IMG/VR virus record: IMGVR_UViG_3300016667_000137
Location: 1-30,270 of that record
Source: a virus
Taxonomy: Duplodnaviria; Caudoviricetes
DNA length: 30,270 nt
Strand: one strand, 5' to 3'
Each line of letters opens with the position of its first letter. Position 1 is the stretch's first letter. The notes beneath the pieces were generated by a model. That model was not told the DNA's origin and ran no database searches. It saw only the letters and a program-made list of their open reading frames with translations. This document shows positions 8,616-30,270 of the stretch, in pieces. Made by a program: the position numbers and the translations under genes.

Positions 8616-9096
8616 GACAGGAGATATACTACATTGCTCAGGCAAACGATTGATTCCGAAACTGATTAAAGCATTCACAAGGTCACAGTTCTCACACTCT
8701 GCGCTTTTCGTGGAGTGTTGGGGACAGCCTTATATTATAGATGCGCAAAAAGATGGAGTTAATTTAAGACCTTTTGAGGAATGGAAAAAGACTTATGGCT
8801 ATGACTACATTGTACATAGGCAAATAAGCGACTACAACGAAAAAGAAATAGCTATTAAGGCACTATCAAAAGTCGGACATACAGCATATGACTTTGAAGG
8901 TCTAATTGTTAAGCAACCAATAGAGCTTTTAACAGGATCTTGGAAGAAGAAACAAGACGAAGGTCAAAGAATGTATTGTTCGGAATTTGTTGCGTGGGTA
9001 TGGAACGCTCAAGATAATTATAGAATGAGTCCTAAAGACCTATACGAATGGTGTCTATTAAATAACTTTGTAGAAAAAGAAAGAGTTGGATTATGA
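8608..9096 (+). CDS. Permuted papain-like NlpC/P60 amidase (YiiX/YaeF, C92 family)
   Basis: GDIL...FSHSAL...AYDF...YCSEFVA (His before Cys); likely start ATG 8608 rather than 8569. Confidence 0.82.
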   Translation: MLKTGDILHCSGKRLIPKLIKAFTRSQFSHSALFVECWGQPYIIDAQKDGVNLRPFEEWKKTYGYDYIVHRQISDYNEKEIAIKALSKVGHTAYDFEGLIVKQPIELLTGSWKKKQDEGQRMYCSEFVAWVWNAQDNYRMSPKDLYEWCLLNNFVEKERVGL

Positions 9097-9572
9097 GCAT
9101 AGTAGAAGTAGCGAAGTCCTATCTTGGACAGGAAGAGATAAGCGGTAACAAAGGCTTTAAAAACAAGGACTTTGAGAAGAAGATGAAGGAGGTAGGTTTT
9201 TCTGCAGGTCAGGCATGGTGTGCTTATTTCTCGGAACTTGTTTGGAAAGAAGCAGGAGAAGACGTTAAACCATTTAGCGCATCTGCATTTAAGACTTATC
9301 AAAATTATGAAAAGGCAGGTCGTAAAGGAGTAACTAAACCCGAAGCTGGAGCATTGGCTGTATGGCGCTCTGTAGTAAATGGTCAGTTACAATGGACTGG
9401 TCACATCGGAATAGTTATCGAAGCGCACGATGATCACTTTGTAACTATCGAAGGTAACACAAACGATAAAGGCGGTCGTGAAGGTATTAAGGTAGCTTTG
9501 AAAAAACGCACATATAATTGGAAAGCTGACAAAGGATTGAGATTAATCGGCTTTATTAATCCAACTATTTAG
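9093..9572 (+). CDS. CHAP-domain endolysin
   Basis: AWCAYF...GHIGIV...TIEGNT motifs. Confidence 0.88.
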   Translation: MSIVEVAKSYLGQEEISGNKGFKNKDFEKKMKEVGFSAGQAWCAYFSELVWKEAGEDVKPFSASAFKTYQNYEKAGRKGVTKPEAGALAVWRSVVNGQLQWTGHIGIVIEAHDDHFVTIEGNTNDKGGREGIKVALKKRTYNWKADKGLRLIGFINPTI

Positions 9573-9580
9573 TATATTTG
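9573..9580 (+). promoter_or_regulatory. Bacteroidota -7 promoter element for putative sRNA
   Basis: TATATTTG fits TAnnTTTG; no good TTG -33 at the expected spacing. Confidence 0.5.
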
Positions 9581-9584
9581 AGAG

Positions 9585-9655
9585 CCAAAAATCCAAAAGA
9601 CGTTTAATTTTTCGCTTAGGTAAGTCAAACCCTCTAAATTATTTTAGGGGGTTTT
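9585..9655 (+). ncRNA. Putative antisense sRNA targeting early-gene leaders
   Basis: Between -7 element and terminator; 9599-9614 is the exact reverse complement of 9756-9771 and 13/14 complementary to 11311-11324. Confidence 0.6.
9627..9655 (+). terminator. Intrinsic terminator ending lysis/sRNA transcription
   Basis: AAACCCTCTAAA-ttat-TTTAGGGGGTTTT. Confidence 0.75.
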
Positions 9656-9710
9656 GTCATTCATAACCAAGCAGTTACAAAAAACTTGCAAATATTTATG
9701 TGGATAACTC

Positions 9711-9740
9711 TTGTTTATTTAAAATAGTTATGTACATTTG
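9711..9740 (+). promoter_or_regulatory. Early promoter (Flavobacterium-type primary sigma)
   Basis: TTG-N19-TACATTTG, matching the -33/-7 consensus. Confidence 0.82.
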
Positions 9741-9771
9741 TAAGGTAATCAACAACGAAAAATTAAACGTC

Positions 9772-9945
9772 ATGAAAGCACAAGAAACAAACTACTTATT
9801 TTCTTTCCAAGATGGTCACGGAAATGAAATCGAATCAAAAGTAATCGCATGTTACTCTAAGAAAGAAGCTATGAAGTTAGCTAGTCGCTATTTAGCAGAG
9901 TCACGTGATGGTGATTTAGTAATCGTTAAAACACGCAAACAATGA
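9772..9945 (+). CDS. First early gene, hypothetical (57 aa)
   Basis: ATG 9772 lies downstream of the promoter; track start 9700 overlaps the promoter. Confidence 0.65.
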   Translation: MKAQETNYLFSFQDGHGNEIESKVIACYSKKEAMKLASRYLAESRDGDLVIVKTRKQ

Positions 9946-10166: not shown

Positions 10167-10344
10167 CTATTATCAAATTGCCAACGATTTTCTTAATGAA
10201 AGAATTGGTGTAACAAAAGGGGTCGAAAACACGTACATTCCTAAGCAAACAGCCATTGACGATGCAGATAGAGCAAGTTTCTGGAATCACTACGACGTAA
10301 TGAGAATTAAATTAATAGGTAAAATAAAACGATCAAAACGATGA
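10159..10344 (+). CDS. Hypothetical protein
   Basis: Overlap-coupled 61-aa ORF. Confidence 0.55.
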   Translation: MSNYYQIANDFLNERIGVTKGVENTYIPKQTAIDDADRASFWNHYDVMRIKLIGKIKRSKR

Positions 10345-11298: not shown

Positions 11299-11324
11299 TT
11301 ACTTTTACACAAAAATTATACGTC

Positions 11325-11861
11325 ATGGAAAAATTAATCGCAATTCAGGCAGAATTAAAATGTCCAAAAGGATCATTCAATGCATTCGGTAAATACAAGT
11401 ATCGAAGTGCTGAACAGATTTTAGAATCAGTAAAACCATTGTTGCAAAAACACGGAGCAGTTTTAAGACTTACTGACGATATTATTCAAGTAGGAAACAA
11501 GCTATTTTTAAAAGCAACTGCAACAATTAGTTTAGATAACGATTGTTTATCAGTAAGTGGATTTGCAGAACTTGGTGAACACAAAGGTATGAGTAGCGAA
11601 CAATGCACAGGAACAGCATCAAGTTATGCACGTAAATATGCGTTAAATGGTCTGTTCCTTATCGATGAGACAGAAAGTGATCCAGACAGCAAGAACAATC
11701 AAGAGCAACCAAAAGAGGTAAAGAAAGAGATTTCTATGGATAGGTTTGAGAAAGCCTTACAGATGGTCGCAGATGGTAAGCTATCGAAAGACGAACTAAC
11801 CAAAAAAATGGAAGCGTTCACGTTAAATGAAGTACAACAAGCAGCATTATTAGTATTATGA
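11325..11861 (+). CDS. erf: ERF-family single-strand annealing protein
   Basis: FGKYKYRSAEQILESVKPLL...QCTGTASSYARKYALNGLFLID. Confidence 0.88.
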   Translation: MEKLIAIQAELKCPKGSFNAFGKYKYRSAEQILESVKPLLQKHGAVLRLTDDIIQVGNKLFLKATATISLDNDCLSVSGFAELGEHKGMSSEQCTGTASSYARKYALNGLFLIDETESDPDSKNNQEQPKEVKKEISMDRFEKALQMVADGKLSKDELTKKMEAFTLNEVQQAALLVL

Positions 11862-12265
11862 TTAAAGTAAATAATACAAGTTACGTAGATGAAAATGGTA
11901 GTGTTGTTGTTGAACATTCATACTCATTTATTAGTACACGTGAACGAATTGGTGCAGTATATATGTTATACAATGAAGATGGTGTATTAATATATATAGG
12001 TCAAACTCAAAATTTAAGATTAAGACTTAATGAGCATTGTAAAAATGAGAATAAAGACTGGAATCATGCATATATTATACCTATATCAAATAGAGAACAT
12101 AGACTTTTTGTTGAGTCTATATTTATAAAAAATTTAAAACCATTAAATAATAAATCATGTGGTAGCACCGAATTACAAAAATATAAATATACATATTTAC
12201 ATGACCTTCAACGTAAGTTAAATGAAGCCAATAAGCAAATAGATTTTATATTGAATGGTTATTAA
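11858..12265 (+). CDS. GIY-YIG nuclease (possible homing endonuclease)
   Basis: AVYML...IYIGQTQNLRLRLNEH...E...N; AT-rich relative to neighbours. Confidence 0.8.
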   Translation: MIKVNNTSYVDENGSVVVEHSYSFISTRERIGAVYMLYNEDGVLIYIGQTQNLRLRLNEHCKNENKDWNHAYIIPISNREHRLFVESIFIKNLKPLNNKSCGSTELQKYKYTYLHDLQRKLNEANKQIDFILNGY

Positions 12266-14167: not shown

Positions 14168-14182
14168 TTTTTATTATATTTG
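14153..14182 (+). promoter_or_regulatory. Bacteroidota promoter for replication operon
   Basis: ATG-N19-TATATTTG (-33 element one mismatch from TTG). Confidence 0.7.
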
Positions 14183-14186
14183 TCGA

Positions 14187-14278
14187 AAGTTCGCTCTCAC
14201 ACTATAGGACTTAAAGAAACTGAAACCCTTTAAATGAGTAACGAGGTGAGAGCCGTGAAAGTTTAAGGGGTTTTTTTT
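14187..14278 (+). ncRNA. Structured leader RNA: two hairpins with complementary loops, loop-E motif, terminator
   Basis: P1 14187-92/14207-12; P2 14223-34/14262-73 with U8; loop GCUCUCAC 14193-200 pairs with GUGAGAGC 14246-53; AGUA/GAA internal loop. Confidence 0.7.
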
Positions 14279-14301
14279 ATTTACTTAAATAACGGAATGT
14301 T

Positions 14302-14817
14302 ATGGAATTTTTAGAAAAGGATTTGGAAGAAATCATTTACTTATCTGATAAAGATAAGTTAGGGGACAGAGGTCTTTGTTTAAATGGAAAATTGAAAAGA
14401 CAGTTCAAAATTGGTAATTACGGAATTGCTGATTTAGTTGAATTTGAAAGACCTTATTATCATAAATATTATAATAAATGCATGAAAGGAGTTATAAATG
14501 TATTAGAATTGAAAAAAGATAAAATTGGTGTTAGTACATTTTTTCAAGCATTAAATTATGTAAAAGGAATTAAAACATATTTAGAAGAAAGAGATATGGA
14601 TCACTTGTTTAATTTTACAATTACTTTGATTGGCAGAACTATTGACACCAATAGTTCTTTTTGTTATTTAGGTGATTTATTTAGCCTGGATGTAAGAGAA
14701 TCAGAAATATATGATTGTACTAAAATAAACATACAATTATTTGAATATAAATATGGAATAGATGGGTTAGAATTTGAAGAAAAATATTCTTATAATTTAA
14801 TTGATAAAGGATTCTAA
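14302..14817 (+). CDS. PD-(D/E)XK nuclease, NucS/EndoMS C-terminal-like
   Basis: LEKDLE...RQ...GIADLV...VLELKK...FQALNY. Confidence 0.62.
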   Translation: MEFLEKDLEEIIYLSDKDKLGDRGLCLNGKLKRQFKIGNYGIADLVEFERPYYHKYYNKCMKGVINVLELKKDKIGVSTFFQALNYVKGIKTYLEERDMDHLFNFTITLIGRTIDTNSSFCYLGDLFSLDVRESEIYDCTKINIQLFEYKYGIDGLEFEEKYSYNLIDKGF

Positions 14818-15551: not shown

Positions 15552-16419
15552 AGGAAGTGATATAGACTATCTGTTAAACTACCACAGCGGTAGGATTAAA
15601 ATGGGTGATGGCATCGGTTGTGGATTAGATGACTATTTCAGGCAGAAACGTGGTGAGTTAAATTTAATACTTGGACATGATAACGTCGGAAAGACTTACT
15701 TTATAAATTGGTTCTTTTTATGTCATGCTATCATAAACAACCATAAGGTCATCATGTGGTCAGGAGAAAATAAAACAGGCACCATTTTAAGGGACATGGT
15801 ACAAATGTATTCTGGTAGACATTTTAAATCACTTTCTGTAAACGAAATAACGAACTATTCCATGTATCTTGAGCAGTTTTTTGACTTTGTAGATAATTCA
15901 AAGCTGTACAAGCCAAACGAACTACTAAAATTATTTGAAGAATCAGACGCACAGATATGCCTTATAGACCCTTTCACAGGGTTAGATAGGGAAATGGGTT
16001 ACGAGAGTAACTATCGTTTCTTAAATCAAGCGAGACAGTTCGTAAATCAAACTCAAAAGACATTGTATATAAACACCCATCCAACATCGGAGAGTGGTCG
16101 TAATGGAAATTTGTATACCGATGGAGATTGGAAAGGTCATTTGAAGCCACCATTGAAAGACCATGTTGAAGGTGGTAAGGCTTTTTTGAATAGAATAGAC
16201 AATATGTTAGTTGTGCATAGGCTAATAAAACACGAACACATGAAATTCATAACAATGGTAAACGTAGAAAAAGTAAAAGATACGGACACAGGAGGAAAGA
16301 TAACAGGATTAAATGACCCTGTGATGTGTGAATATAACTCTGGTTTAGGTTTTAAGGTAGGTTTTGTTGACCCATTAGCACCACATAGACCAAAAGTAAA
16401 ATCAAATAATTTATTTTAA
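15538..16419 (+). CDS. DnaB-like (SF4) replicative helicase
   Basis: Walker A GHDNVGKT, WSGEN, Walker B CLIDP, INTHP, VEKVK. Confidence 0.78.
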   Translation: MLKTKGSDIDYLLNYHSGRIKMGDGIGCGLDDYFRQKRGELNLILGHDNVGKTYFINWFFLCHAIINNHKVIMWSGENKTGTILRDMVQMYSGRHFKSLSVNEITNYSMYLEQFFDFVDNSKLYKPNELLKLFEESDAQICLIDPFTGLDREMGYESNYRFLNQARQFVNQTQKTLYINTHPTSESGRNGNLYTDGDWKGHLKPPLKDHVEGGKAFLNRIDNMLVVHRLIKHEHMKFITMVNVEKVKDTDTGGKITGLNDPVMCEYNSGLGFKVGFVDPLAPHRPKVKSNNLF

Positions 16420-17611: not shown

Positions 17612-18151
17612 GTGAACAAGAATAGAATGCTTACCGAAGTAGCCAAGCATCACAAAGAGTGGTGTAGAATCGTAAAAGGTTTTGGTGAATCAAATTATAC
17701 GGAAGACGTAGTGCAAGAAATGTACATCCGAGTATACAAGTACGGACAAGAGGATAAAGTAATAACGCCAAACGGAGTAAACAAATCATTCGTGTGGTTC
17801 ATGCTTAGGAACGTTTACTTAGACGTATGTAAGCGAAGGAATAAAGTTGATGAGGTTAAACTAACTGAGGATTTTAAACTACTCAGTCCAGATAGCGACC
17901 AAGAAAAACACGAAGCATACAAGCGACTACTTCAAAAGATGAATCAAGAGATGGATAAATGGGAGTGGTACGATAAAATGCTGTTTGAACTATACAGAGA
18001 TTCAGGAATGAGTTTAAGACAAATGAGTAAGGCAACAACGATAAGCACACGATCAATCTTTCATACGATAAAGCAATGTAAGATCAGGTTGGCTGAAAAT
18101 GTAGGAGAGGATTACGCAGATTATATAAATCAAGACTTTGAATTGATATGA
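17612..18151 (+). CDS. ECF/sigma-70-like sigma factor (late transcription)
   Basis: Region-2-like EDVVQEMYI...FVWFMLRNVYLD; region-4 HTH GMSLRQMSKATTISTRSIFHTI; GTG start. Confidence 0.8.
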   Translation: MNKNRMLTEVAKHHKEWCRIVKGFGESNYTEDVVQEMYIRVYKYGQEDKVITPNGVNKSFVWFMLRNVYLDVCKRRNKVDEVKLTEDFKLLSPDSDQEKHEAYKRLLQKMNQEMDKWEWYDKMLFELYRDSGMSLRQMSKATTISTRSIFHTIKQCKIRLAENVGEDYADYINQDFELI

Positions 18152-29230: not shown

Positions 29231-30270
29231 ATGGCACAGAATAGCGCAAAAGGAAGTTCTTATATAACGCCAAGTTTAGATGGCTTAACAGATGTAACCA
29301 TTGCAGGTGCAACCACTAACCAAGTGCTAACGTACAACGGTACTACATGGGTCAACTCTTCCACTCAAGGAGACATGTTAAAATCTGTTTACGACACGGA
29401 CAACGATGGTGTAGTAGATAGTGCAGAAAAACAAGTATTAGATGTTAGGAATAGTACAGGTTCATCTATACCAAAAGGTTCGGTTGTTTATATAAGCGGT
29501 GCAACAGGGCAAATGCCAAACATCACTTTGGCTGATGCAGACACGGAAGTTACCTCATCAAAAACTATCGGGTTAACATTAGATGCAATTGCCAATAATA
29601 CAAATGGTACAATTATAACAAGCGGTATTTTTCACAACATAGACACAAGTGCATTTACAGATGGCGCAAGTTTATGGTTAAGTTCAACAGCAGGCGGAAT
29701 GGTAGCGAGCGCACCACCTGCTGAACCTGCTCACTCTGTTTTTATCGGATGGGTTGCTTATGCTCATCCAACAAACGGAAAAATAGTAGTTGCTATTCAA
29801 AATGGATATGAATTAAATGAGTTACATCAGGTAAGTGTATCAAGTGAAGCTAACCAAGATGTACTTAGATATGAATCGTCTACAGGTCTTTGGAAAAACC
29901 AACAGATTGAAACAGCAAGTGGCTCACAAAAAGGACTATTAAGTTCAACAGATTGGACTACGTTCAATTCAAAGCAGAATGCCATTACACTTACCACAAT
30001 AGGTAACTCAGGTAACGCAACTTTCGTAGGTTCGACTTTAAATATACCTAACTACACAAACTCATTAATTCCAGACCTTAAAGGTCATGAAACATTTAGA
30101 GGTGTAACATTTGCAAACAACTCAACCACGGACACGACATGGGGAGGTGTAACATTAGGTACAACAGCATCTACAATAGCACGTTCAGTAGCATCAACAA
30201 ACTTTGCTTCTAAACAAATTCGTAAAGGTTTCTATGCTTCTGTAGTAAGTACAGGAAGATACACAGGTGT
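29231..30270 (+). CDS. Tail fibre/receptor-binding protein, N-terminal part (519 aa when circularised to 709); not in ORF track
   Basis: ATG directly after previous stop; LDGLTDVTI...NQVLTYNGTTWVN, DMLKSVYDTDNDGVVD, GYELNELH; open to window end and in frame with 2-709. Confidence 0.78.
   Translation, partial: MAQNSAKGSSYITPSLDGLTDVTIAGATTNQVLTYNGTTWVNSSTQGDMLKSVYDTDNDGVVDSAEKQVLDVRNSTGSSIPKGSVVYISGATGQMPNITLADADTEVTSSKTIGLTLDAIANNTNGTIITSGIFHNIDTSAFTDGASLWLSSTAGGMVASAPPAEPAHSVFIGWVAYAHPTNGKIVVAIQNGYELNELHQVSVSSEANQDVLRYESSTGLWKNQQIETASGSQKGLLSSTDWTTFNSKQNAITLTTIGNSGNATFVGSTLNIPNYTNSLIPDLKGHETFRGVTFANNSTTDTTWGGVTLGTTASTIARSVASTNFASKQIRKGFYASVVSTGRYTG
30082..30270 (+). repeat. Terminal direct repeat / circular overlap, right copy
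   Basis: Matches 1-189 with 9 substitutions. Confidence 0.95.

Follow-up and report, generated by a model that had tools for sequence, protein, structure and literature searches.

The window analyzed here is the full 30,270-nt record of an uncultured phage, whose long open reading frames (ORFs) are almost all on the + strand. The nearest cultured match is Nonlabens phage P12024 (30-38% identity for the protein at 2470, the portal, and the exonuclease), and because of these matches and the TAnnTTTG promoters, we infer a host in the Bacteroidota, probably a flavobacterium. The two ends (1-189 and 30082-30270) carry a common 189-nt repeat with 95% identity inside an apparent tail-fibre-like gene, so a circular genome was probably broken at an internal repeat and a small part may be missing. 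Directly before the packaging genes, 17612-18151 gives a weak sigma-factor-like match (phrog_1740, E 2e-5), and its product is a candidate late-gene activator. No member of the integrase or CI/Cro families was found among the 52 proteins of this genome, in agreement with an earlier note on this DNA that had seen no recognizable repressor; in the same family search, ORF 9942 gave one metal-repressor match, below the cut-off.

The locus of interest lies at the junction between late and early genes. The TAG stop of a CHAP endolysin, the last late gene, adjoins the promoter of a putative RNA unit; past the endolysin, a gap of ~200 bases is followed by small early genes, erf, an exonuclease, SSB, a replication initiator, a helicase, and NinG. 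The features are as follows.

9093..9572 (+): CHAP endolysin, last late gene (Pfam CHAP, E 2e-8; PHROG endolysin)
9573..9580 (+): -7 promoter element of the RNA unit, Bacteroidota type, TATATTTG (TAnnTTTG consensus; kept in relatives)
9585..9658 (+): predicted small RNA, about 70-74 nt (open 5' part, then terminator hairpin)
9599..9614 (+): antisense core (seed), GACGTTTAATTTTTCG (identical in relatives L001 and L004)
9627..9658 (+): terminator-like hairpin (hairpin 9627-9654) with a short 4-U tail
9733..9740 (+): likely early promoter -7 element, a second TAnnTTTG, TACATTTG (kept in L001 and L004)
9756..9771 (+): target 1, leader of the first early gene (16/16 complementary, -17.9 kcal/mol, best among 53 starts)
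9772..9945 (+): first early ORF, 57 aa, without a family match
11300..11307 (+): promoter-like TACTTTTA, a TAnnTTTG element but for one base, with its end 17 nt upstream of the erf start
11311..11324 (+): target 2, erf leader (13/14 complementary, -15.6 kcal/mol, second among 53)
11325..11861 (+): Erf single-strand annealing recombinase (Pfam ERF, E 7e-32)
14280..14310 (+): possible weak third target, start region of ORF 14302 (-10.4 kcal/mol, third among 53)

The earlier note had described the core (9599-9614) as the exact reverse complement of 9756-9771, the last base of which adjoins the ATG at 9772, and as complementary at 13 of 14 positions to 11311-11324, which adjoins the erf ATG at 11325. 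Both descriptions are correct to the base, as is the TAnnTTTG element at 9573-9580 with which it had bounded the unit on one side; the terminator on the other side, given there as 9627-9655, has a hairpin that spans 9627-9654. The core and 9756-9771 form the sole perfect inverted repeat of at least 15 nt within the 30,270 nt. As a 16-nt inverted repeat arises somewhere in 6 out of 20 base-shuffled genomes, it is the position, and not the length alone, that carries the significance. A comparison with shuffled controls against all starts, which had been proposed along with the claim, came out in its favor: none of 3000 dinucleotide-shuffled cores reached at least 15 nt in the 53 start windows (maximum 14), with gene starts taken from a simple tiling rule and the first one set by hand to 9772. 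The observed combination of a 14/14 and a 13/14 pairing was likewise matched by 0/300 shuffled cores. The pairing with ORF 14302 (-10.4 kcal/mol) is not clearly over background, which leaves two clear targets in this genome, without the starts of the replication initiator and the helicase among them. The proposed targets, erf and the first early gene, are the two that stand out here.

ORF 14302 (14302-14817) is low in GC and without a family match, and a GIY-YIG endonuclease (11858-12265) separates erf from the exonuclease, a place taken in L001 by another gene of 130 aa; both look like inserted or swapped genes. A second promoter-led RNA (14175-14279, + strand) lies ahead of ORF 14302 and the replication initiator, so that this ORF stands between RNA and initiator. 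Its 5' hairpin loop, GCTCTCAC, is complementary to GTGAGAGC within a large terminator-like hairpin. In all 54 distinct copies collected from related loci, the two segments of this kissing-loop leader match perfectly over 6-9 nt; the matched words number 23, and cross pairs between copies with differing codes mostly match over 3-5 nt. No Rfam family was found for this RNA.

Sequence prediction gives the unit at 9573-9658 the layout of a small RNA (sRNA), with a promoter of its own, a single-stranded seed, and an intrinsic terminator with a short tail. From the TAnnTTTG at 9573-9580, and with the -7 consensus and the 4-5 nt spacing to the start given in the accessible text of PMC6847099, the RNA is predicted to start at 9585/9586; the sigma-70 promoter scan is unsuited to promoters of this type. 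Positions 1-42 of the predicted RNA are unpaired in the centroid fold, and the seed has a mean unpaired probability of 0.68. No sequencing run recorded as RNA contained this stretch, and the contigs of four runs that were inspected come from relatives and are probably DNA, so they speak neither for nor against a transcript. The terminator scan of this genome did not list the hairpin at 9627, and this, together with the tail of only four U, makes read-through plausible. A start from the second element (9733-9740) would place target 1 at 11-26 nt of the early transcript. We rejected a minus-strand gene starting in the core, which has no ATG here and 2-9 codons in relatives, with no conserved ORF. 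The antitoxin of a type I toxin-antitoxin pair was also rejected, as the tag fronts differing first genes in relatives as well as erf, and ORF 9772 has no family match.

To examine the unit beyond this genome, relative loci were gathered by erf and endolysin, and by promoter-plus-terminator patterns in which the core was not specified. This yielded 122 distinct units, 95 of them with at least 3.5 kb downstream, and the same arrangement of promoter, core, and terminator was found in relatives at the late/early junction. Among 39 erf-anchored loci (those with enough upstream DNA or a unit; not pattern-selected, with some contigs duplicated between collections), a TAnnTTTG-led unit was present in 26, and none of the 13 loci without one extends to the two late marker genes. 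The genes upstream of the unit (37 scanned) included 7 endolysins or holins and 12 metallophosphoesterase or nuclease-like genes, and in three relatives inspected gene by gene the unit lies after the lysis block. In 65/95 units, the real core paired better with the downstream starts of its phage than did any of 20 shuffled cores; the other 30 were not better than all of their shuffled cores. Preference for the cognate leaders was absent in core group 3 and in several singletons (e.g., L292, L293, L330, L338, L343, L356), whose units may be other RNAs. L283 fits the clade pattern but carries an unrelated unit and was set aside.

The nearest cultured system, P12024S (L479, NC_018271.1), has a unit at 10174-10245, directly after a holin, that consists of a promoter, a U-rich core, and a terminator. 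This unit has a 12-nt perfect match to a leader at 16313; as 219/300 shuffles pair as well, we do not count it as support. A loose pattern scan (120 matches listed) contained many chance or unrelated matches and was left out of every count. Other viral contigs from that scan (L164, L180, L199, L103, L130, and others) carry units of promoter, U-rich core, and terminator that resemble reversed start regions, which suggests that the predicted unit design extends beyond this phage group.

The core sequence varies by lineage and mirrors the early-gene tag of the same lineage. The two largest core groups comprise 27 units each (group 0, with TTCATAAT and TTAATTGTT; group 1, with CATAGCG), the group of this genome has 2 units plus the truncated L004, and the other groups are smaller. 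In a quick tree of the exonuclease (52 rows), a single branch separates group 1 from all other rows; another does so for group 4, and a third for group 0 plus L066. The covariation that the earlier note had called for in relatives is present, in that cores change between lineages along with the early-gene tags; it covers about three well-sampled lineages and two singletons.

One comparison uses erf as a common target (25 loci). Each of five core types pairs best with the leader of its own lineage, and at 17 of the 25 loci no leader from another group pairs as well as the own one. The means for own versus other leaders are -15.3 versus -7.2 to -12.1 in group 0 (with sister group 8 set aside), -13.7 versus -5.0 to -11.4 in group 1, -15.9 versus -5.5 to -8.1 in the group of this genome, -10.8 versus -3.2 to -6.5 for L031, and -11.1 versus -2.5 to -8.2 for L254. 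Between the sister phages L031 and L254, core and erf leader both differ.

The tags can also be followed across all gene starts. ACGCT before the ATG occurs at 74/388 downstream starts in group 1, at 0/414 in group 0, and at 0/155 upstream starts, and AACAATTAA occurs at 67/414 downstream starts in group 0, at 3/388 in group 1, and at 0/201 upstream starts; by these upstream counts, the tags are nearly missing ahead of late genes. In the group of this genome, ATTA[AT]ACG is found at 4/23 starts. When tags were derived solely from the leaders, they mirrored their own core in 20/27, 21/27, and 2/2 loci, compared to 10-15% for the cores of other groups; in this de novo test, group 2 passed in 1/7 loci and the remaining small groups in 7/32. 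L001 is without the first small gene, and there the tag fronts the next gene, still at the transcript start, with the first leader carrying the tag minus its last two pairs. Two seeds, TCATAA and TTAATTGTT, are each kept in 27/27 units across 19 distinct cores with a variable spacer, a conservation that is partly circular because the grouping used core similarity. In group 1, the seed base opposite +4 does not follow the target base, and seed and remainder of the RNA are about equally exposed in group 0 (0.55 vs 0.51).

The pairing falls on the region where translation begins. Perfect matches of 7 nt are most frequent at -20..-12 and -4..+4 in group 0, at -4..+3 in group 1, and at -16..-8 in the group of this genome, and these peaks overlap the adenine determinants of Flavobacterium johnsoniae translation at -13, -12, -6, and -3 (PMC6847099, accessible text). 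Targets tend to have promoters of their own: a promoter-like element within 50 nt upstream was found for 69/134 targets vs 27/280 non-targets in group 0, and for 48/101 vs 36/287 in group 1. These elements mostly end 22-24 nt ahead of the ATG and are of the TAnnTTTG type in many relatives. As targets with their own promoters reach 5-6 kb from the core, and as separately promoted transcripts would exclude it, the pairing would have to act in trans. Relative to A.C mismatches, G.U pairs were no more favored at start sites than internally (group 0, 40 vs 38 at start sites and 180 vs 128 internally; group 1, 5 vs 19 and 19 vs 54), and the ACGTT erf leaders of L004, L202, and L203 retain a G.U pair as single cases.

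The element is real and conserved. We consider it likely that the predicted small RNA pairs with start regions and represses early genes; for its role, we lean toward that of a damper of the early genes. The earlier proposal of a trans-acting, ribosome-occluding sRNA has good support from comparison, in that the unit recurs, core and tag change together, and the pairing lies on the start region. In the reading that we prefer with modest confidence, a small RNA pairs in trans with tags before the first genes of early transcripts and damps their expression. The unit would be transcribed from a host-type promoter to give a small RNA of ~70 bases with an open seed, and the seed would pair with the tag ahead of the first genes (here the 9772 ORF and erf). 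The duplex would mask the ribosome-loading region, so that translation of early and recombination genes falls. The RNA and the early genes share one promoter class, so the RNA would be made from the start of infection, and damping would grow as it accumulates, which amounts to negative feedback with a delay. Late on, extra RNA could come from the late mRNA, whose end is at this hairpin too; the 3' end of the lysis mRNA, an origin raised in the earlier note, is thus a possible additional source. In read-through transcripts, the core would also fold in cis onto target 1.

The main rival to the role of early-gene damper is immunity. Here, the RNA and the pairing are the same, and a resident phage, non-integrated or carried, silences its own early genes and blocks superinfection by phages with a matching tag. 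That tags differ by lineage, as immunity groups do, is consistent with this, and the P4 CI RNA and P1 c4 are precedents. In addition, the temperate Riemerella phage PT33 has an integrase and leftward genes between endolysin and erf, at the position of the RNA unit, and the lack of integrase and CI/Cro family members in the 52 proteins here extends to 70 proteins of three relatives. On the other hand, a lysogenic or plasmid state has left no sign: no integrase-like match was found in 95 loci, no partition genes were found in this genome or the three relatives, and a genome collection contained no erf above 59% identity (5 loci). Just two clear targets stand out here, and they do not include the starts of the replication initiator and the helicase. 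We regard this reading as doubtful, and the same holds for a broader scheme in which early transcripts are tagged by lineage and one small RNA replaces a protein repressor and defines exclusion groups that silence superinfecting kin. In another reading, the core works chiefly in cis, or as the 3'-terminal part of the late mRNA; read-through would fold it onto the first early leader, so that late transcription does not bring back early gene expression. The stretch 9573-9800 does fold with the core on 9756-9771 (-53.1 kcal/mol, z -5.3), the U tail is short, the terminator is missing from the scan list, and the promoter element adjoins the last late stop codon. What makes this reading improbable is that targets up to 5-6 kb off are separately promoted, on transcripts without the core, and that TAnnTTTG precedes the core in 26/39 erf-anchored loci, the other 13 being loci that do not reach the late marker genes.

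The match might also belong to the DNA, as a by-product of promoter-leader cassettes copied within a lineage, with an inverted copy or a protein site at the junction and no RNA pairing. Tags travel together with promoters, the G.U bias is absent, and an A/U-rich core will pair to an extent with A-rich leaders of Bacteroidota in general (-8 to -15 off the diagonal), all of which would fit. However, the inverted copy sits within a promoter-terminator unit, the anti-start triplet is included in groups 0 and 1, the minus strand has no conserved ORF, and the two seeds are constant (27/27 each) in 19 distinct cores despite the variable spacer, with the partly circular grouping noted above; we rate this account slightly below action in cis. 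Finally, the RNA could be directed at host mRNAs, masking generic strong Bacteroidota starts and shutting down host translation. The group 0 seed resembles an A-rich strong start region, and across 31 bacterial genomes the group 0 tag pattern has about twice as many matches as its reversed control (373 vs 185). However, this amounts to 0-31 matches per ~3 Mb genome in these 31 genomes, which are perhaps not true hosts, compared to 16% of phage early starts, and the 15-nt tag of this genome occurs in 0/2 genomes tested, again perhaps not true hosts. We therefore find host shut-off highly improbable.

The nearest known systems were compared on the basis of the accessible text of the cited papers. 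In Bacteroides thetaiotaomicron, GibS and FopS are trans-acting sRNAs that bind to start codons or right next to them and so repress (PMC7366714, PMC11697453); FopS has a 5' seed followed by an intrinsic terminator and a canonical sigma-ABfr promoter, and targets the first genes of polycistrons (PMC11697453). The RNA described here is similar in its predicted single-stranded 5' seed aimed at start regions and in its Bacteroidota setting, and, as in sRNAs of this type, seed complementarity to start regions elsewhere in the genome exceeds chance. GibS and FopS, however, are chromosomal and regulate metabolism, whereas this RNA is phage-encoded, is aimed at early genes of its own phage, and has a seed that changes with the tag from lineage to lineage.

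Phage antisense RNAs offer a second comparison. The c4 RNA of P1/P7 (77 nt, processed) represses antirepressor synthesis in a protein-repressor circuit (PMC8546580). The RNA described here is likewise phage-encoded, of comparable size, and proposed to repress phage genes in trans by antisense pairing; it differs from c4 in having a promoter and terminator of its own, no predicted structure ahead of the terminator, and several dispersed targets. The P4 CI RNA arises by processing of the transcript under its control, where it brings about premature termination via seqA and seqC (PMC4825925). Like the RNA unit here, CI lies a short way upstream of its target genes, and it pairs with complementary sites nearby; in this phage, the predicted targets are start-codon regions kilobases apart, and the layout suggests an independent unit. 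Unlike in the phages that carry c4 or CI, no lysogenic-state genes (integrase, repressor, antirepressor) were found here, with the proviso that divergent genes could escape. P22 sar, lambda OOP and aQ, and BTP1 STnc6030 are phage RNAs that repress phage mRNAs by base pairing, and STnc6030 gives superinfection exclusion (PMC12197685). Each of these has one target gene, whereas the tag here is common to several early genes; the parts of that 2025 review of phage small RNAs covered here include no RNA aimed at such a tag.

Rfam gave 0 matches at the gathering score in this genome (best weak match 29.3 bits, against a cut-off of 60), and none to the C4-type models (P1/P7 c4, P4 CI). In the open literature covered, we found no description of this element. 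What appears to be new is a phage-encoded anti-start RNA directed against dispersed, tag-bearing early genes of the same phage; its presumed action is of the kind known from GibS and FopS.

The layout offers a protein-free answer to the question of how small phages without a recognizable repressor lower the expression of their early genes. Bacteroidota lack Shine-Dalgarno sequences (PMC6847099, accessible text), which leaves the start region free for a private tag and may explain why the arrangement recurs in Bacteroidota phages. If the tag also defines exclusion groups, phage immunity would have a new route, and Bacteroidota genetics would gain a repressor that is compact and programmable.
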